Virus record (IMG/VR): IMGVR_UViG_2695420859_000017
DNA length: 9,321 bases
Reading direction: 5' to 3' (one strand)
From: a virus
Lineage: Duplodnaviria; Heunggongvirae; Uroviricota; Caudoviricetes
Shown here: one piece after another, positions 1-9,321 of the stretch
Layout of the letters: each line of letters starts with the position of its first letter
How positions within the stretch are numbered: position 1 is the stretch's first letter
The notes under the pieces: model-generated
Databases searched by the model: none
Seen by the model: only the letters and a program-made list of their open reading frames with translations
What the model was told of the DNA's origin: nothing
Made by a program: the position numbers and the translations under genes

Positions 1-769
1 TGTTTTTCAGGCGGGTGAATGCCTGACTGGTTTCATCCGCCCTGTCAGTCACATCCTGCTTAAGTGCGGAAAAGGCAGTTTCCATCTCAGCGAGGCGCTG
101 CTCAGTGGCGCTCAGTTTTTCCTGCACATGTTCAGCGACAGCGGTCACCGCTTCATGCACGTCATTCAGACGGGCGTCATCGCTGGCCTGTTTGCGGCCA
201 AAAATGGATTTCACCTTTTCGGTCAGGGCGGTGAACACGGTTTCAGGCAGGTCTTCAAATTCCAGCTCAACGGGCGTTGCCACTGAAATCAGGTTTTCAG
301 GGCTTAATTTGAAGCGGTTCAGGGGGTTGTGTTTTGCCGTGCGGCAGAATTCCAGGTATTCCGTGCCGAGGCTTGCCGGGTCATCGGTGACAGCCAGCCC
401 CACCAGATAACATTTGCCGGTATTGGCAAAGTTCGGCTGAATTTCCATTGAGGTGTAGACCTTCTGCGCGGCCTTGTTCATCGCGATAAGGTCATCGGTC
501 GGGGTGATTTTCGCAAACAGCGCCCATTTGCCTTTCAGCGCCGAATCGTCATCAATCTTTTCGGCCTTCAGTTCGGCCACATCGCCATAACGTTTAAAAA
601 TACCGTCAGGCAGGATGCCGCGCAGATGTTCCAGGTTAATGCGGCAACCATAGACACGCGGGTCAAAGGTTTCCGCCATTTCCTGAATATCCTGCGCACT
701 GATGACACGCCCGTCACAGGTGTCACCCTCAACGCCGATACGAAAGAATTTTGAGACTTTTTTTGCCAT
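1..769 (-). CDS. O: Capsid scaffolding protein GpO, partial (start codon at 767..769; 3' end lies beyond the window start)
   Basis: Reverse complement of 700..769 translates MAKKVSKFFRIGVEGDTCDGRVIS, which I recognise as the N-terminus of P2 GpO. The frame is open to position 1. It is absent from the ORF track because its stop is outside the window. It is divergent from the terminase gene, as in P2. Confidence 0.85.
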   Translation of the reverse strand, partial: MAKKVSKFFRIGVEGDTCDGRVISAQDIQEMAETFDPRVYGCRINLEHLRGILPDGIFKRYGDVAELKAEKIDDDSALKGKWALFAKITPTDDLIAMNKAAQKVYTSMEIQPNFANTGKCYLVGLAVTDDPASLGTEYLEFCRTAKHNPLNRFKLSPENLISVATPVELEFEDLPETVFTALTEKVKSIFGRKQASDDARLNDVHEAVTAVAEHVQEKLSATEQRLAEMETAFSALKQDVTDRADETSQAFTRLKN

Positions 770-806
770 TGTCAGGAGTCCTGAATAGTGATTAGAGGAG
801 TCACAT

Positions 807-826
807 GTCGGCATCAGTTTCCCGAC
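807..826. promoter_or_regulatory. Dyad GTCGG-N10-CCGAC in the divergent O/P intergenic region; possible activator or operator site for the late promoters
   Basis: Seen directly: 5-bp perfect inverted repeat with a 10-bp spacer, between the O start (769) and P start (943). It does not match the TGT-N12-ACA spacing that I recall for Ogr-dependent late promoters, so function is unassigned. Confidence 0.2.
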
Positions 827-942
827 GATGCGCATCCTCCGCCATCAGTCCCGGATGGCTTATCGCTGACACAACAGCACCTTAGCGAATCGCGGGGCGC
901 GACTCAGTAGCCTTGCCGTGTATTCATCACGGCGAGGTATTC

Positions 943-2715
943 ATGACCATCACCACAGACACCACTCTTTTACACGACCCGCGTCGTCAGGCGGCGCTGC
1001 TGTACTGGCAGGGGTTTTCCGTGCCGCAGATTGCCGCCATGTTGCAGATGAAACGCCCGACGGTGCAGAGCTGGAAACAGCGCGACGGCTGGGACAGCGT
1101 TGCCCCCATCAGCCGTGTCGAAATGAGCCTGGAAGCGCGGCTGACCCAGCTCATCATCAAACCGCAGAAAACCGGCGGTGACTTCAAGGAAATTGACCTG
1201 CTCGGACGCCAGATTGAACGACTGGCACGGGTAAACCGCTACAGTCAGACCGGCAACGAGGCAGACCTTAATCCGAACGTCGCTAACCGCAACAAAGGCG
1301 AGCGTCGCAAACCGAAAAAGAATTTTTTCAGTGACGAAGCCATCGAAAAGCTGGAGCAGATTTTCTTTGAGCAGTCTTTCGACTATCAGTTGCACTGGTA
1401 TCGCGCCGGGCTTGAGCACCGCATCCGCGATATACTGAAATCCCGCCAGATTGGCGCAACGTTTTATTTTTCCCGCGAGGCGCTGCTGCGCGCCCTGAAA
1501 ACCGGCCATAACCAGATTTTTCTGTCGGCCAGTAAAACGCAGGCGTATGTGTTCCGCGAATACATCATCGCCTTTGCCCGTCTGGTTGACGTTGACCTGA
1601 CCGGTGACCCGATTGTCCTGGGCAATAACGGCGCAAAACTAATTTTTCTCGGCACCAACTCCAACACCGCGCAGAGCCATAACGGCGACCTGTACGTCGA
1701 CGAGATTTTCTGGATCCCGAATTTTCAGGTACTGCGTAAGGTGGCATCAGGTATGGCCTCACAGAGTCACCTGCGCTCGACCTATTTCTCCACCCCGTCC
1801 ACGCTGGCGCACGACGCCTACCCGTTCTGGTCAGGTGAACTGTTCAACCGGGGACGCGCCAGCGCCGCCGAACGCGTGGAAATCGACGTCAGTCATAACG
1901 CCCTTGCCGGTGGTCTTCTCTGTGCGGACGGCCAGTGGCGGCAGATTGTCACCATTGAGGATGCCCTGAAAGGTGGCTGCACACTGTTCGACATTGAGCA
2001 GCTCAAACGTGAAAACAGCGCCGACGATTTTAAAAACCTGTTCATGTGTGAATTTGTTGACGACAAGGCGTCGGTGTTCCCGTTCGAGGAGCTGCAACGC
2101 TGCATGGTCGACACGCTGGAAGAATGGGAAGACTATGCGCCGTTTGCCGCCAATCCGTTCGGCTCACGTCCGGTATGGATTGGTTACGACCCGTCACACC
2201 GTGGCGACAGTGCCGGATGCGTGGTGCTGGCACCGCCGGTGGTGGCCGGTGGCAAATTCAGAATACTTGAGCGTCACCAGTGGAAAGGCATGGACTTTGC
2301 CACCCAGGCTGAATCCATCCGCAAACTCACCGAAAAATACAACGTCGAATACATCGGAATTGATGCCACCGGCCTCGGTGTCGGCGTGTTCCAGCTCGTT
2401 CGCTCGTTCTATCCCGCCGCGCGCGATATCCGCTACACGCCGGAAATGAAAACCGCAATGGTGCTCAAGGCAAAAGACGTTATTCGCCGTGGCTGTCTGG
2501 AATATGACGTCAGCGCCACCGACATCACCAGCTCGTTTATGGCTATCCGCAAGACCATGACCAGCAGCGGACGCAGCGCCACCTATGAGGCCAGCCGCAG
2601 CGAGGAAGCCAGCCACGCCGACCTCGCCTGGGCGACCATGCACGCCCTGTTAAATGAGCCACTCACCGCCGGTATCAGCACCCCGCTGACATCCACCATT
2701 CTGGAGTTTTACTGA
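943..2715 (+). CDS. P: Terminase large (ATPase) subunit GpP
   Basis: 590-codon ORF beginning MTITTDTTLLHDPRRQAALLYWQGFSVPQIAAMLQMKRPTVQSWKQRDGWD, recognised as P2-family GpP. ATG at 943 follows GAGG at 933..936; the ORF-track start at 913 is an upstream TTG and less likely. Stop TGA overlaps the next ATG (ATGA at 2715..2718). Confidence 0.9.
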   Translation: MTITTDTTLLHDPRRQAALLYWQGFSVPQIAAMLQMKRPTVQSWKQRDGWDSVAPISRVEMSLEARLTQLIIKPQKTGGDFKEIDLLGRQIERLARVNRYSQTGNEADLNPNVANRNKGERRKPKKNFFSDEAIEKLEQIFFEQSFDYQLHWYRAGLEHRIRDILKSRQIGATFYFSREALLRALKTGHNQIFLSASKTQAYVFREYIIAFARLVDVDLTGDPIVLGNNGAKLIFLGTNSNTAQSHNGDLYVDEIFWIPNFQVLRKVASGMASQSHLRSTYFSTPSTLAHDAYPFWSGELFNRGRASAAERVEIDVSHNALAGGLLCADGQWRQIVTIEDALKGGCTLFDIEQLKRENSADDFKNLFMCEFVDDKASVFPFEELQRCMVDTLEEWEDYAPFAANPFGSRPVWIGYDPSHRGDSAGCVVLAPPVVAGGKFRILERHQWKGMDFATQAESIRKLTEKYNVEYIGIDATGLGVGVFQLVRSFYPAARDIRYTPEMKTAMVLKAKDVIRRGCLEYDVSATDITSSFMAIRKTMTSSGRSATYEASRSEEASHADLAWATMHALLNEPLTAGISTPLTSTILEFY

Positions 2716-3872
2716 TGAGCAAGAAAAAAGGGAAAACACCGCAACCTGCGGCAAAAACAATGATCGCCAGCGCCCCGAAAATGGAGGCATTCACCTTTGG
2801 CGAGCCGGTACCGGTACTCGACCGCCGTGACATTCTTGATTACGTCGAATGCATCAGTAACGGCAGATGGTATGAGCCACCGGTCAGCTTTACCGGTCTG
2901 GCAAAAAGCCTGCGTGCCGCCGTGCATCACAGCTCCCCGATTTACGTCAAACGCAATATTCTGGCCTCGACATTTATCCCGCATCCGTGGCTTTCACAAC
3001 AGGATTTCAGCCGCTTTGTGCTGGATTTTCTGGTGTTCGGTAATGCGTTTCTGGAAAAGCGTTACAGCACCACCGGTAAGGTCATCAGACTGGAAACCTC
3101 ACCGGCAAAATATACCCGCCGTGGTGTGGAAGAGGATGTTTACTGGTGGGTGCCGTCCTTCAACGAGCCGACAGCCTTCACGCCCGGCTCCGTGTTTCAC
3201 CTGCTGGAGCCGGATATTAATCAGGAGCTGTACGGCCTGCCGGAATATCTCAGCGCCCTTAATTCTGCCTGGCTGAATGAGTCGGCCACGCTGTTTCGCC
3301 GCAAGTATTACGAAAACGGTGCTCATGCCGGATATATCATGTACGTCACTGATGCCGTGCAGGATCGCAACGATATCGAAATGCTTCGCGAAAACATGGT
3401 TAAGTCGAAAGGCCGCAACAACTTTAAAAATCTGTTTCTCTATGCCCCACAGGGGAAAGCCGACGGCATTAAAATTATCCCGCTCAGTGAAGTGGCAACG
3501 AAGGACGATTTTTTTAATATCAAAAAAGCCAGCGCCGCAGACCTGCTGGACGCGCACCGCATCCCTTTTCAGTTGATGGGCGGCAAGCCGGAGAACGTCG
3601 GGTCGCTGGGTGATATTGAGAAAGTGGCAAAGGTCTTTGTACGCCGTGGCTGTCTGGAATATGACGTCAGCGCCACCGACATCACCAGCTCGTTTATGGC
3701 TATCCGCAAGACCATGACCAGCAGCGGACGCAGCGCCACCTATGAGGCCAGCCGCAGCGAGGAAGCCAGCCACGCCGACCTCGCCTGGGCGACCATGCAC
3801 GCCCTGTTAAATGAGCCACTCACCGCCGGTATCAGCACCCCGCTGACATCCACCATTCTGGAGTTTTACTGA
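2715..3872 (+). pseudogene. Chimeric ORF: portal (GpQ) N-terminal ~309 codons fused in frame to a duplicated terminase C-terminal 76 codons
   Basis: Residues 1 to ~309 match the full portal copy at 4916..5935. From about nt 3642 the sequence shows no differences on visual comparison from terminase 2485..2715 (RRGCLEYDVSATDITSSFMAIRK...STILEFY), ending at a second copy of the P-stop/Q-start overlap. Confidence 0.55.
3642..3872 (+). repeat. Duplicate copy of the terminase 3' end (equals 2485..2715)
   Basis: Visual base-by-base comparison of 3642..3872 with 2485..2715 found no differences, including the terminal tactgATGagc junction. Confidence 0.8.
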
Positions 3873-4271
3873 TGAGCAAGAAAAAAGGGAAAACACCGCA
3901 ACCTGCGGCAAAAAAAATGACCGCCAGCACCCCGAAAATGGAGGCATTCACCTTTGGCGAGCCGGTGCCGGTACTCGACCGCCGTGACATTCTGGATTAC
4001 GTCGAATGCATCAGTAACGGCAGATGGTATGAGCCACCGGTCAGCTTTACCGGTCTGGCAAAAAGCCTGCGTGCTGCCGTGCATCACAGCTCACCGATTT
4101 ACGTCAAACGCAATATTCTGGCGTCGACATTTATCCCGCATCCGTGGCTTTCCCAGCAGGATTTCAGCCGCTTTGTGCTGGATTTTCTGGTGTTCGGTAA
4201 TGCGTTTCTGGAAAAGCGTTACAGCACCACCGGTAAAGTTATCAGGCTGGAAACCTCACCGGCAAAATATA
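3872..4271 (+). pseudogene. Portal (GpQ) 5' fragment, ~133 codons, diverged allele
   Basis: Begins MSKKKGKTPQPAAKKMTASTPKMEAF and tracks the portal to ...ETSPAKY. It differs from the other two copies by scattered single-base changes (KTMIASAP becomes KKMTASTP, plus apparently synonymous changes). After ~4271 the portal frame runs into unrelated sequence and stops at 4471. Confidence 0.55.
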
Positions 4272-4916
4272 TCGGTGTTCCCGTTCGAGGAGCTGCAACG
4301 CTGCATGGTCGACACGCTGGAAGAATGGGAAGACTATGCACCCTTTGCCGCCAATCCGTTCGGCTCCCGCCCGGTATGGATTGGTTACGACCCGTCACAC
4401 CGTGGCGACAGCGCCGGATGCGTGGTGCTGGCACCGCCGGTGGTGGCCGGTGGCAAATTCAGAATACTTGAGCGTCACCAGTGGAAAGGCATGGACTTTG
4501 CCACCCAGGCGGAATCCATCCGCAAACTCACCGAAAAATACAACGTCGAATACATCGGTATTGATGCCACCGGCCTCGGTGTCGGCGTGTTCCAGCTCGT
4601 GCGCTCGTTCTATCCTGCCGCGCGCGACATCCGCTACACGCCGGAAATGAAAACCGCAATGGTGCTCAAGGCAAAAGACGTTATCCGCCGTGGCTGTCTG
4701 GAATACGACGTCAGCGCCACCGACATCACCAGCTCGTTTATGGCTATCCGTAAGACCATGACCAGCAGCGGACGCAGCGCCACCTATGAGGCCAGCCGCA
4801 GCGAGGAAGCCAGCCACGCCGACCTCGCCTGGGCGACCATGCACGCCCTGTTAAATGAGCCACTCACCGCCGGTATCAGCACCCCGCTGACATCCACCAT
4901 TCTGGAGTTTTACTGA
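4272..4916 (+). pseudogene. Terminase (GpP) 3' fragment, ~214 codons, diverged allele, out of frame with the preceding portal fragment
   Basis: 4272..4916 corresponds to terminase 2071..2715 (VFPFEELQRCMVDTLEEWEDYAPFAANPF ... STILEFY) with several apparently synonymous single-base differences. It lies in a different frame from the portal fragment upstream; the ORF-track entry 3954..4916 is this frame reading backwards by chance. Confidence 0.55.
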
Positions 4917-5935
4917 TGAGCAAGAAAAAAGGGAAAACACCGCAACCTGCGGCAAAAACAATGATCGCCAGCGCCCCGAAAATGGAGGCATTCACCTTTG
5001 GCGAGCCGGTACCGGTACTCGACCGCCGTGACATTCTTGATTACGTCGAATGCATCAGTAACGGCAGATGGTATGAGCCACCGGTCAGCTTTACCGGTCT
5101 GGCAAAAAGCCTGCGTGCCGCCGTGCATCACAGCTCCCCGATTTACGTCAAACGCAATATTCTGGCCTCGACATTTATCCCGCATCCGTGGCTTTCACAA
5201 CAGGATTTCAGCCGCTTTGTGCTGGATTTTCTGGTGTTCGGTAATGCGTTTCTGGAAAAGCGTTACAGCACCACCGGTAAGGTCATCAGACTGGAAACCT
5301 CACCGGCAAAATATACCCGCCGTGGTGTGGAAGAGGATGTTTACTGGTGGGTGCCGTCCTTCAACGAGCCGACAGCCTTCGCGCCCGGCTCCGTGTTTCA
5401 CCTGCTGGAGCCGGATATTAATCAGGAACTGTACGGCCTGCCGGAATATCTCAGCGCCCTTAACTCTGCCTGGCTGAATGAGTCGGCCACGCTGTTCCGC
5501 CGCAAGTATTACGAAAATGGCGCACATGCCGGATACATCATGTACGTCACTGATGCCGTGCAGGACCGCAACGATATCGAAATGCTTCGCGAAAACATGG
5601 TCAAGTCGAAAGGCCGCAACAACTTTAAAAATCTGTTTCTCTATGCCCCACAGGGAAAAGCCGACGGCATTAAAATTATCCCGCTCAGTGAAGTGGCGAC
5701 GAAGGACGATTTTTTTAATATCAAAAAAGCCAGCGCGGAAGATCTAATGAGTGCCCATCGAGTCCCCCCGCAAATGATGGGGATGATGCCTAATAATGCG
5801 GGAGGATTTGGCGATGTAGTTAAAGCGGCTAAAGTTTTTGTCAGGAATGAGTTAGGGCATCTACAATCGCGAATGAAGGAATTGAACTCATGGATAGGTG
5901 AAACAGTTATAACATTTAACAATTACTCGTTATAA
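4916..5935 (+). CDS. Q: Portal protein GpQ, full length (339 aa), with a diverged AT-rich 3' end
   Basis: ORF starting MSKKKGKTPQPAAKTMIASAPKMEAFTFGEPVPVLDRRDILDYVECISNGRWYEPP, recognised as the P2-family portal. ATG overlaps the stop of the preceding terminase-derived segment. It is the only copy with a portal-type C-terminus and stop. Confidence 0.85.
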   Translation: MSKKKGKTPQPAAKTMIASAPKMEAFTFGEPVPVLDRRDILDYVECISNGRWYEPPVSFTGLAKSLRAAVHHSSPIYVKRNILASTFIPHPWLSQQDFSRFVLDFLVFGNAFLEKRYSTTGKVIRLETSPAKYTRRGVEEDVYWWVPSFNEPTAFAPGSVFHLLEPDINQELYGLPEYLSALNSAWLNESATLFRRKYYENGAHAGYIMYVTDAVQDRNDIEMLRENMVKSKGRNNFKNLFLYAPQGKADGIKIIPLSEVATKDDFFNIKKASAEDLMSAHRVPPQMMGMMPNNAGGFGDVVKAAKVFVRNELGHLQSRMKELNSWIGETVITFNNYSL

Positions 5936-5941
5936 ACCCTG

Positions 5942-5965
5942 CAGGCTTTGGCTCACCAAAGCCTG
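5942..5965. terminator. Hairpin between the convergent portal gene and the cargo operon (10-bp perfect stem CAGGCTTTGG / CCAAAGCCTG, 4-nt loop)
   Basis: Seen directly. Lies in the 35-bp gap between the Q stop (5935) and the minus-strand stop at 5971. No strong T-tract on either side, so intrinsic-terminator strength is uncertain. Confidence 0.45.
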
Positions 5966-5970
5966 TAAGA

Positions 5971-6588
5971 TCAAGCAGATAGGCAAAACGTTTCTGTTTG
6001 CCCCAAGTGTTCAAACACAGTAATCGATGTTACTTTTCCGGCACTTATTTTGTTAAGGAACTTCAATATTTGTTGAGGCTCCTCCATGACTGCTGTTTTC
6101 TTGATTATAAATCCCTCAAGATTTTTCAAGCTGTATCGCTGACTTGAGTTCTCAAGAGCAGCAATCATTGCCGAACTGCGCATATCTCTATGTCCACTAG
6201 CTCTACAAACGACAGCATAATTTAAATTAAGCTCTACAAAATTTTGCCTTGTCAACTCTGGAAGGTGTTTACATACAAAATGAAATAAAGTCGTAACACC
6301 TTCATGTATTTTCAACCTTATATCATCCTTTTGTGAACGTCCTTCTTTAAATTCAATGAAGTACAATTTATCTTCATATAAAAATAAAGCATCCGGTGAT
6401 TTTTCTTTAAACTCACGCTTATAAACAGGCGAGCAATTTAACACCGTATCATAGTTAAAGCCCTTCGAATCACAAATAATAAAATTCCGAGCCCCTGCAT
6501 CATTGTAGCTTAATCCGGTTACATCAACCATTGAATCAGGGTATACTTCACACAGTTTTCTAAAAACAAGTTCCTCATTAGAAATCAT
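5971..6588 (-). CDS. Hypothetical 205-aa protein, second gene of the cargo operon; family not recognised; possible PD-(D/E)xK-like nuclease motifs
   Basis: ATG at 6586..6588 is preceded by AGGAG (reverse complement of 6596..6600) at 7-nt spacing and overlaps the upstream gene by 11 nt (ATGATTTCTAA). Strongly AT-rich. Contains FIICD (res 36-40) and LFLYEDK / FIEFK (res 68-81), which could be PD-(D/E)xK motifs II and III; this is inference only. Confidence 0.7.
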   Translation of the reverse strand: MISNEELVFRKLCEVYPDSMVDVTGLSYNDAGARNFIICDSKGFNYDTVLNCSPVYKREFKEKSPDALFLYEDKLYFIEFKEGRSQKDDIRLKIHEGVTTLFHFVCKHLPELTRQNFVELNLNYAVVCRASGHRDMRSSAMIAALENSSQRYSLKNLEGFIIKKTAVMEEPQQILKFLNKISAGKVTSITVFEHLGQTETFCLSA

Positions 6589-7906
6589 CCAAATACTCCT
6601 GATTCAATTCTTTTAATGGTGATGCCAAAAGATTAATTGCATATGCAACATTATCAGTAATATCAACAAAAGATGTAAACTCTTCCCCAGGGAATCGCTC
6701 GCTTATATAGAACCGATTTTCAATCCCAATTTTATCGCTATAATGTTTAAGAGCATCAATAATATACGGGCTATGTGTTGTAATTATTATATCAACCCCC
6801 ATAGACACTAACTCACAAATAATCTCAGCATAGAAAACCTGCCATTTTGGATGTAAGTTCACCTCTGGCTCATCAATAATCAGTAACGAGTTATCTACTG
6901 CTGCCCCGCACTTAACAAGCATATCAAGAATACCTAAAGACTTTATTCCTGACGCAATATTACCCGATGTGACTTTATAGCCTTGCTTCTCTAGAAAAAA
7001 ATCATTCTTTTCAATATCATAAACCACTTCACCACAGAAAGTAGCATTGATTTTGTTAGATATACGCAGTGACTCTTTTAAAAATGAGCCATCATCAAAA
7101 ATATCCGAATGCACAAATAAATTATAAACTGAATCGCTTAATTTTATTGATAGATCTTTCACATGCAATGGAACAGTTAGACGTCCTGATTCACCATTAC
7201 TATCAAATAAAGTTTTAGCAAAACGAACCAAATTATGAAATTGCATAATACTTGGAGAGTCAACATAGGTTGCGTCGACATATCCTAAGCCATCAGTATA
7301 ATCAAATTGTGATATACCATCTTTAGTCCATTTAATATCAATTAACTGACTAACACCATCAACAACTTCCAGAGATGCTTTAACTGGATTTTGATTACCC
7401 TTCTGAATAATTTCGCCTCTAAATTCAGAGTAAAAGGCCTTACGCAGAGCACGGTTGATAGCAGATAGCTCATCATCTGGCTCAAGCATTATATCTCTGA
7501 TTTTTCTTATATCAGAGAGTACAGAATCAGCCATCAATTCTGGAAGAAGCCCTTCCTCAATCAAATTATATAGATAACTCTCTCTCTCAGCCAAAGTTTT
7601 AGAGATATCTATTTTTAGAGAGGCATAAAACTTTCTTGGATTGAATAACTCTCTAATTTCCGGCGTAGCAGCAATATTAATCCTCCTACGCAGATTAAAA
7701 TATATTTTCTCTACGATAGATGTAATTCTATCCTCTTTGTCTTCTTCTAAATCCTCTTGATAACGAGATATCGCCTTTACCATTGAAAACAATATTTTCC
7801 CTACGGTACTCTTCCCCGTATCATTTTCACCAGTTATGACAGTTAAACCACCAACTGAAACATCAGCTTCTGCAATAGTTCCAAAATTATTAATTTTTAT
7901 ACGCAT
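6578..7906 (-). CDS. OLD/ABC-family (AAA_15/AAA_21-like) ATPase, 442 aa, with no Toprim or other nuclease domain
   Basis: N-terminal Walker A GENDTGKST (nt 7805..7831), C-terminal Walker B LLIIDEPE (nt 6863..6886) and H-loop TTHSP (nt 6767..6781), with ~300 residues between the Walker motifs. This layout is typical of OLD/GajA/AriA/PtuA-type ATPases. Spot counts of 60-nt lines give roughly 27-30% GC against about 60% in the structural genes. Confidence 0.8.
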   Translation of the reverse strand: MRIKINNFGTIAEADVSVGGLTVITGENDTGKSTVGKILFSMVKAISRYQEDLEEDKEDRITSIVEKIYFNLRRRINIAATPEIRELFNPRKFYASLKIDISKTLAERESYLYNLIEEGLLPELMADSVLSDIRKIRDIMLEPDDELSAINRALRKAFYSEFRGEIIQKGNQNPVKASLEVVDGVSQLIDIKWTKDGISQFDYTDGLGYVDATYVDSPSIMQFHNLVRFAKTLFDSNGESGRLTVPLHVKDLSIKLSDSVYNLFVHSDIFDDGSFLKESLRISNKINATFCGEVVYDIEKNDFFLEKQGYKVTSGNIASGIKSLGILDMLVKCGAAVDNSLLIIDEPEVNLHPKWQVFYAEIICELVSMGVDIIITTHSPYIIDALKHYSDKIGIENRFYISERFPGEEFTSFVDITDNVAYAINLLASPLKELNQEYLDDF

Positions 7907-7946
7907 AAACTATCTCACTGTACGCCAGATATCCAACCTTATGAAT

Positions 7947-7975
7947 ACTTTAGCATATTTCCAAAAAGATGACAC
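7947..7975 (-). promoter_or_regulatory. Candidate sigma70 promoter for the cargo operon (GTGTCA-N17-TAAAGT with a TG extended -10)
   Basis: Read on the minus strand between cos and the ATPase start codon. A 4/6 match at -35 and TGnTAAAGT at -10 would leave a ~40-nt 5' UTR. Pattern match by eye only. Confidence 0.25.
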
Positions 7976-7999
7976 TGGTGGTTGCAGGCCTCGCGCGCA

Positions 8000-8018
8000 G
8001 TGCTTTCCCCGCCTCGCC
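8000..8018 (-). other. cos: cos site: 19-nt cohesive-end sequence identical to P2 (GGCGAGGCGGGGAAAGCAC on the minus strand)
   Basis: Reverse complement of 8000..8018 is GGCGAGGCGGGGAAAGCAC, followed by CTGCGCGC, matching my recollection of the P2 left end. It sits in a GC-rich block, in the expected neighbourhood of the portal gene. Confidence 0.75.
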
Positions 8019-8112
8019 CGCCCGCTTCACGGGGCGGTTTTAATGCAGTTGCATAGATACTATGGATCCGCACCAGTCCTGACCGCACGCAGCCTGAACG
8101 GACATCCCCAGC

Positions 8113-8141
8113 GCATGCAAAAACATTCACTGGTTGCATGC
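8113..8141. other. Inverted repeat GCATGCAA-N13-TTGCATGC followed by CTTTTT
   Basis: Seen directly, ~100 bp from cos. Could be a protein-binding site or a weak terminator. Confidence 0.2.
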
Positions 8142-8302
8142 ATAGCTTTTTAAGTACGCCATACCGCAACTGTACATTTTTAAGCAATTGGCAACTTTAA
8201 AAAATTTACATTGCTTTCAAGACCTTATCATCCGTAGTCTCTGTTTTTTACTTTGAGCTACATCAATAAAATCTCAAACATGTTTAATGCAAAGCCCTTG
8301 TT

Positions 8303-8356
8303 ACACAACATAGAATGTATGTCTAGAAACAACGACATACTATATGTTGTGTTTTT
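8303..8356 (+). other. Long imperfect hairpin (arms ACACAACATAGAATGTATGTC / GACATACTATATGTTGTGT, 10-nt loop) followed by a T-run; terminator-like or sRNA 3' end
   Basis: Seen directly: 10-bp and 7-bp perfect stem segments separated by a small internal loop, then TTTTT at 8352..8356. An A-tract is lacking on the other side, so orientation is plus. Confidence 0.4.
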
Positions 8357-8418
8357 CCGGCTCTCTGTTCGGTGATATGCCAAATCACTTTGCGTTTAAA
8401 CAGAGCATTATTTCAGGG

Positions 8419-8433
8419 CAAGACTTCGCTCAA
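8419..8433 (+). repeat. 15-bp direct repeat CAAGACTTCGCTCAA, copy 1
   Basis: Exact 15-mer found again at 8683..8697; the two copies bracket the small ORF and its terminator. Confidence 0.5.
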
Positions 8434-8496
8434 AAGTCATTCCACCTAAGAAGCGCATATACCGGTGGAAGTTGCCCTCTACTTACAGGAGGCAAT

Positions 8497-8610
8497 ATGA
8501 AGAAATGCTATTACTGCATTCTCGTTCTGGCCCTCTTTGGCTATCCAAACGGTAGTCCGAGTGGTTTGTCAGTAAACGTCAGTAATATCAATGTCAGCAT
8601 TATGCTTTAA
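8497..8610 (+). CDS. Small hydrophobic peptide, 37 aa (MKKCYYCILVLALFGYPNGSPSGLSVNVSNINVSIML); function unknown
   Basis: ATG at 8497 is preceded by a consensus AGGAGG at 8487..8492 (4-nt spacing). Stop at 8608..8610 is followed 13 nt later by a strong intrinsic terminator. The N-terminus is KK followed by a ~13-residue hydrophobic stretch. Short length keeps confidence low. Confidence 0.35.
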   Translation: MKKCYYCILVLALFGYPNGSPSGLSVNVSNINVSIML

Positions 8611-8622
8611 TATGCTTCAAAC

Positions 8623-8652
8623 AAAAAAACCACCTGCCAGGGTGGTTTTTTT
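8623..8652. terminator. Rho-independent terminator, bidirectional form (AAAAAAACCACC-TGCCAG-GGTGGTTTTTTT)
   Basis: Seen directly: perfect GC-containing stem with a 6-nt loop, A-tract upstream and T7 downstream. Confidence 0.8.
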
Positions 8653-8682
8653 GCGCCCATCATCAATACGATGAAAGACTGA

Positions 8683-8697
8683 CAAGACTTCGCTCAA
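8683..8697 (+). repeat. 15-bp direct repeat CAAGACTTCGCTCAA, copy 2
   Basis: Identical to 8419..8433; AAGACT-like motifs also occur at 8675..8680 and 8696..8700. Confidence 0.5.
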
Positions 8698-8912
8698 GAC
8701 GAATTATGCGTCGACATAAGGTTACCCGCAATGATTTTATTAGACTAAATGGATGGCCTTTTATGACCCGGATCAAACGGCTGTCCTTACCGACATGCTA
8801 GTCACTCAATAGCATTTAGCCTTCTAATTCAGCATGCTATTGACCTTCTGCTGCCCCATAACTGCTCCGCATAAGCCATTCAATGCCATATCAAATCACG
8901 TTGTGTTTTTAC

Positions 8913-9321
8913 TCAAATGGGTAACGAGAACCCCGGCCACTCATCAGCAACCGGATACGTGAATTTTTTCCCGTCATAATTTACGGTCGCGCCACGCGCC
9001 AGCGCCTCAAGCTCCCATCGTTGCGGCCTGATACCGTTCTGAGCGAGGTCAACGCGGATACGGGTAATTTGCAATCGTTCAGACCTGGTCAGTCTGGCAG
9101 ATGGTGCAATTTCATGCGGTTTTAACGGGATTCCGTTTCTTTGCTGACGATTTGGTGTTCTCAGTCCGTGTTTTAATGCGCCCCTGAGCACCATCACTAC
9201 CTCCGGGTCACTCCATTCGATAACACCGTCATCTACCAGATTAAGCACTGCTGCGGCGTGCTCAGAAGGTGTGGGAGCCGGTAACGAAGTATCACCACCG
9301 GTGAGCTTTCCACAGTTATTG
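8913..9321 (-). CDS. Phage protein, 3' portion only (gene starts beyond the window end); probably the last gene of the early/replication operon
   Basis: The minus-strand frame is open from the window edge (…TGGDTSLPAPTPSEHAAAVLNLVDDGVIEWSDPEV…) to TGA at 8913..8915. The ORF-track start at 9248 is an internal GTG. GC content is backbone-like. Product assignment is positional inference only. Confidence 0.55.
   Translation of the reverse strand, partial: NNCGKLTGGDTSLPAPTPSEHAAAVLNLVDDGVIEWSDPEVVMVLRGALKHGLRTPNRQQRNGIPLKPHEIAPSARLTRSERLQITRIRVDLAQNGIRPQRWELEALARGATVNYDGKKFTYPVADEWPGFSLPI

Follow-up and report, generated by a model that had tools for sequence, protein, structure and literature searches.

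The stretch of DNA that we analyzed, called the window below, is 9,321 bp long and carries a packaging module of the P2-like (Peduovirus) type, as identified by a gpP-type terminase ATPase, a portal, a gpO scaffold protein, the P2 cos 19-mer, and synteny with P2-like prophages. The intact terminase protein occurs in identical form on 203 contigs, and in 10 of the 10 contexts listed, a single portal gene directly follows it. In the window, two further ORFs stand between the terminase gene and the ORF for a full-length portal. These and the other features of the locus are collected in the table.

Features of the window, including the pieces of the underlying scaffold and the haplotype (X or Y) of each block
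Feature	Position	Strand	Description
gpO gene	1-769	-	partial
Terminase ATPase subunit	943..2715	+	gpP-like, 590 aa, intact, X allele; Terminase_5, Terminase_6N, Terminase_6C
Portal-terminase "fusion" ORF	2715..3872	+	385 aa, artefactual; Phage_portal + Terminase_6C
199-aa ORF	3872..4471	+	artefactual; X-type portal head (133 aa), then out-of-frame terminase sequence
Portal ORF	4916..5935	+	339 aa, assembly chimera; Y-type head (KTMIASAP) on X-type body/tail
Prophage X two-gene cargo	5971..7906	-	205-aa protein of unknown family + 442-aa ABC/OLD-type ATPase
P2 cos 19-mer	8000..8018	-	exact match
Replication gene A	from 8913		end of gene
Contig A	1..3640		ends inside portal gene; X, then shared, then Y
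Scaffold gap J1	3641..3641		N in record; joins portal position 927 to position ~1543 of the terminase
Contig B	3642..4270		629 bp; X throughout; terminase tail + portal head
Scaffold gap J2	4271..4271		N in record; blunt, without microhomology
Contig C	4272..9321		Y, then shared, then X with portal 3′ end, cargo, cos, end of gene A
Block of contig A	1-2550		haplotype X; 1 mismatch to L005 (at 293), 50 to H123
Block of contig A	2551-2757		X/Y identical; 207 bp
Block of contig A	2758-3640		haplotype Y; 0 mismatches to H123, 69 to L005
Block of contig B	3642-4270		haplotype X; 0 mismatches to L005, 15 to H123
Block of contig C	4272-5290		haplotype Y; 0 mismatches to H123, 26 to L005
Block of contig C	5291-5380		X/Y identical; 90 bp, equivalent to 3090-3179
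Block of contig C	5381-9321		haplotype X; 5381-5935 and cargo region: 0 mismatches to L005

The first of the two cargo genes encodes the 442-aa ATPase (AAA_15/AAA_21, phrog_14430), which has partial, mostly C-terminal matches to the defense ATPases HEC-02A, PD-T4-4_A, AriA, and PtuA; in the PDB, it likewise has partial matches to chains from AriA and from an OLD-family nuclease. The gene for the 205-aa protein overlaps the ATPase gene. The only match of this second protein was phrog_25533; Pfam, PADLOC, and NCBIfam returned none, and its PDB matches were weak (E >= 0.025) and at chance level. The cargo pair is present in at least seven complete E. coli genomes and may be an uncharacterized two-gene anti-phage candidate.

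We compared the portal genes and cos sites of five loci with a 339-aa portal (L001, L003, L005, L007, and L011) with those of eight loci with a 344-aa portal (L004, L006, L008-L010, and L012-L014). In the 339-aa-portal prophages, the last ~66 portal codons are replaced by sequence with ~55-58% nucleotide identity to the standard allele, and the cos 19-mer lies 1,958-2,065 bp past the portal stop, which places the ATPase cassette between the portal gene and cos. In the 344-aa-portal prophages, by contrast, cos lies 169-189 bp past the stop, and variable cargo is found on the gene-A side of cos. Because the cassette lies between the portal gene and cos, the insertion site in the 339-aa-portal prophages differs from the classical tin/old side. 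The boundary of this insertion lies inside the portal gene.

Self-BLAST and a repeat search of the window revealed three partly overlapping copies of the region that spans the terminase tail and the portal head. Positions 4272-5736 match 2071-3535 at an offset of 2201 with 25 mismatches, and positions 3626-4271 match both 2469-3114 (offset 1157) and 4670-5315 (offset 1044). A regular repeat unit is absent; the geometry is instead that of two abrupt joins, at 3641/3642 (J1) and 4271/4272 (J2), where the sequence jumps backward by 1157 and 1044 bp, respectively. Tandem Repeats Finder detected no repeat in the window, where the periods exceed 500 bp. At J1, portal sequence meets terminase sequence in an imperfect match of 14-15 of 19 bases (3626-3644). 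We also considered 3536-3644 as an odd insert and rejected this idea: the segment is common P2-type portal sequence, and the third copy has a divergent portal 3′ end.

The sequence-only reading had held that the middle repeat unit (3872-4916) is a different allele from its neighbors. A precise alignment reproduced all of the differences exactly, and they are real. The first duplicated terminase tail, previously judged by eye to be unchanged from the parental terminase, is identical to it (0/273 differences between 3642-3914 and 2485-2757). Scattered substitutions had been reported in the portal part of the middle unit, and 3915-4246 indeed carries 13 relative to both other copies. Ten of these are at third codon positions and three are non-synonymous (T15K, I17T, and A20T), the latter accounting for the reported change of KTMIASAP to KKMTASTP. 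The terminase part had been thought to differ by synonymous changes; comparison of 4272-4916 with 2071-2715 detected 13 substitutions and no amino-acid change among 214 residues, and the two examples given, gcg to gca and tcacgt to tcccgc, map to 2139/4340 and to 2166 and 2169/4367 and 4370, respectively.

An exact-protein look-up of the 385-aa ORF led to CYER01000057.1, a 9,321-bp record of the E. coli draft assembly GCA_001283965.1, which corresponds to the entire window. Compared base by base, the window and the record differ at only two positions, 3641 and 4271, both of which are N in CYER01000057.1 and A in the window. These two positions are also the only non-colinear junctions in the window, and we had located the junctions from self-comparison, independently of the Ns. 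Because a single N stands at each join, CYER01000057.1 is a scaffold of three contigs, which we designate A, B, and C. The novel joints at 3641 and 4271 were never sequenced, and nothing was read across either. A genuine duplication or recombinant would have continuous sequence across each joint, but both joints are N; the coincidence of the junctions with N placeholders, found at 3641 and 4271 and nowhere else, is what a scaffolding artefact would leave. The record terminates within two conserved P2 genes, O at one end and A at the other, which is where related prophages would be expected to break an assembly. Microhomology-mediated recombination at J1 was a candidate that we dropped once the Ns had been found; J2 is blunt. 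We treat the patch of similarity at J1, which would also suit microhomology-mediated joining, as a coincidence.

The two ORFs that separate the terminase gene from the full-length portal ORF are artefactual because they read through the N placeholders at 3641 and 4271, and the change from N to A makes such spurious ORFs appear. Owing to the N, the record's own locus does not translate to the 385-aa query. Among ~15 billion proteins, the 385-aa fusion was found on CYER01000057.1 only, and an exact protein look-up of the 199-aa ORF found nothing. The portal encoded by 4916-5935 was likewise found on CYER01000057.1 only. When the head supplied by contig B is swapped in, the result is identical to a protein that occurs on 194 contigs, WP_053894469.1. 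The 385-aa fusion (CTY49476.1) and the chimeric portal (CTY49540.1/WP_053881724.1) have entered public protein databases from this scaffold.

The junctions were absent from independent assemblies, as is characteristic of a scaffolding artefact. A search of 5,426 complete E. coli genomes yielded neither J1 nor J2, and none of these genomes contains the structure. Their best matches cover 7,120 bp, 2,201 fewer than the 9,321 of the window, and have a single terminase and a single portal together with the same cargo; queries spanning each junction matched only as separate pieces. Among the matches listed from a phage database of 50,697 records, there were only separately aligned pieces and none that crossed a junction. 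Exact searches of genome, viral, and metagenome contig collections with 40-mers across each junction, in which the N was treated as a wildcard, gave 0 matches.

We next asked where the sequence of each contig comes from. Since a test for never more than two alleles per site is powerless for SNPs, we replaced it with a block-wise comparison to natural references, using L005 (on a contig of 296 kb in GCA_048655625.1 that bears the same cargo) for haplotype X and H123 (NZ_CP119441.1, another E. coli prophage) for haplotype Y. Every variable block of the three contigs has 0 mismatches to one of these references and 12-90 to the other, with position 293 as the sole exception. The cargo at 5971-7906 is separate from the artefact and marks which haplotype is X. 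Contig B, whose terminase tail and portal head are equivalent to 2485-2715 and 2715-3113 and which carries KKMTASTP, is 99.7% identical to genomes with the same cargo. In the first two variable blocks, A is X-Y, B is X-X, and C is Y-Y, with two alleles per block. Three block combinations built on no more than two alleles per block require that one contig or more be a haplotype-switch chimera; A and C change haplotype in stretches that are identical between X and Y.

The overlapping pieces re-thread into colinear haplotypes, a further property of scaffolding artefacts. Joining A (1-2757), B (3915-4270), and C (5315-9321) yields a colinear X locus of 7,120 bp with one mismatch to L005 (7119/7120), and the product is a normal terminase-portal-cargo locus, relative to which the deposited scaffold has 2,201 extra bases. 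Colinear paths other than this X thread have 14-27 mismatches to L005. For haplotype Y, the thread C (4272-5380) plus A (3180-3640) matches H123 at 1,570 of 1,570 bases. The threaded X locus differs from the prophage in GCA_048655625.1 only at window position 293; in this unrelated assembly, the X prophage is essentially identical.

The same comparison accounts for the differences between the copies, which are not due to chance, because each variant matches a pre-existing natural allele. Copies of a genuine duplication would be identical or carry new mutations of their own; here, all differences are pre-existing X or Y alleles, and the region equivalent to 2071-3640 holds no private mutations. 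The proposal of a distinct allele at 3872-4916 therefore stands with respect to the differences themselves but not to a single unit. Because this segment straddles J2, its portal and terminase parts come from different contigs, and it is a composite of an X-type portal head (contig B) and a Y-type terminase tail (contig C). Its neighbors are also X/Y chimeras that switch within X/Y-identical stretches. Two origins had been offered for the repeat. A chimeric assembly of two co-resident prophages agrees with the N at both joins and with the sorting of the pieces, without remainder, into two P2-like haplotypes. Recombination between two related P2-like prophages as the source of the repeat is unsupported, since no sequence spans either junction.

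Our findings thus point to a scaffolding artefact in which three short-read contigs from two P2-like prophages were chained across two single-N gaps, a reading to which we assign a probability of about 93%. The read set of the isolate would have contained sequences of two P2-like (Peduovirus) prophages that are close relatives: X, with a 339-aa portal and an ATPase cargo that separates the portal gene from cos, and Y, with a standard 344-aa-type portal. From these, a short-read assembler would have built three contigs that cover the terminase-portal region. Two of the three switched haplotype in X/Y-identical stretches: A from X to Y within the 207 bp at 2551-2757, and C from Y to X in the 90-bp stretch that corresponds to 3090-3179. 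Contig B, of 629 bp, would have supplied the X-type portal head missing from A and C. A paired-read scaffolder that followed X-specific links would have ordered the X terminase (A), the portal head (B), and the portal tail with the cargo (C), chaining the contigs end to end despite homologous overlaps of 1157 and 1044 bp and placing a single N at each join. With mis-threaded Y sequence at the inner ends of A and C, end-to-end chaining would give rise to apparent backward jumps of these lengths. Once the Ns were printed as "A", the scaffold would have come to resemble a tandem repeat of terminase tail and portal head with copies of different alleles.

The positions of the contig ends are consistent with such a course of events. 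The N at 3641 sits on an X/Y SNP column (canonical 2484) and the N at 4271 on canonical 2070, and B and C start at the equivalents of 2485 and 2071, each one base past an X/Y SNP. About 2.6% of columns are variable, and the probability that both contig starts would adjoin a SNP by chance is ~7e-4. Extension may have halted at a base with ~50:50 ambiguity, or the contig starts may reflect the boundary of a de Bruijn bubble. According to the Sanger pipeline paper (PMC5320598), the scaffolding program SSPACE and the gap-filling program GapFiller work greedily and may join sequences falsely. GapFiller uses majority voting at allelic overhangs and closes a gap only with an overlap of at least 10 nt (PMC3446322). 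Scaffolding and gap filling of this kind, with greedy joins and N gaps, are described in both papers (PMC5320598; PMC3446322). That software of this kind was responsible is our inference, as is the role of X-specific links in driving the contig order. The ~1.9 kb of Y-specific sequence inside the scaffold suggests that the rest of prophage Y was present as well, and the two haplotypes could derive from a mixed culture instead of one genome.

Two other explanations deserve consideration. The joins could be false while contigs A and C are faithful, in which case the isolate would have carried at least three P2-like prophages, including natural X/Y recombinants. E. coli genomes contain up to five P2-like places each, mosaicism is a property of P2-like phages, and real homologous recombination would likewise take place in shared stretches such as those that hold the switch points. 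Nevertheless, this explanation is improbable: it is less parsimonious, as two haplotypes explain every base, the X and Y threads agree at 7119/7120 and 1570/1570 positions with two independent natural prophages, and the portal of contig C is seen in no other assembly. Still harder to credit is a genuinely rearranged X/Y hybrid prophage, in which illegitimate recombination produced a real partial triplication that includes the terminase tail and the portal head, the Ns being simply uncalled bases; J1 does lie in a patch of portal/terminase similarity, the first fusion ORF is in frame, and a phage with the intact terminase (943-2715) and full-length portal (4916-5935) could stay viable, but both joins are undocumented Ns, J2 lacks microhomology, two illegitimate and two homologous crossovers would be needed within 2.2 kb with each block still 100% identical to either X or Y, all pieces can be threaded back into two natural phages, and the genomes, phage records, contig collections, and proteins searched held no second instance of the junctions, of the fusion protein, or of the chimeric portal. 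We regard it as very improbable, too, that the in-frame portal-terminase fusion ORF is real and the scaffold order right, as that rearrangement would entail.

Genuine tandem duplications do occur in phage P2 genomes, as exemplified by the classical P2 duplication mutants. The window resembles these superficially in having repeated segments within a P2-type genome. In real duplications the novel joints are sequenced and the copies are initially identical; in the window, both joints are Ns, and the copies represent alleles that already existed in two phages. The window is also like the false duplications known from scaffolds as "negative gaps" or haplotig chaining, in which unmerged allelic or overlapping contigs follow one another with no more than a minimal N gap between them (PMC5320598; PMC3446322). 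Shared features include allelic SNPs between the copies, contig ends at variant positions, and junctions without sequence support. Where a diploid would contribute its two haplotypes, the "alleles" of this scaffold belong to two related prophages, from either a haploid bacterium or a mixed culture. With the artefact removed, the locus is like those of E. coli P2-like (Peduovirus) prophages, with a standard packaging module, an exact cos 19-mer, and variable cargo between the portal gene and gene A. Once the X blocks are threaded, it shows no difference from the gpO/gpP/gpQ/cos/cargo hotspot/gpA region of these prophages.

The repeat with a middle unit of a different allele is not a real feature of a P2-like phage and has no biological significance. 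Any other reading of the window that depends on this repeat, for example duplicated terminase tails or fusion ORFs, should be discounted likewise. Replacement of N by a normal base hides scaffold gaps, with the result that false joins mimic exotic repeats, gene fusions, and "alleles".
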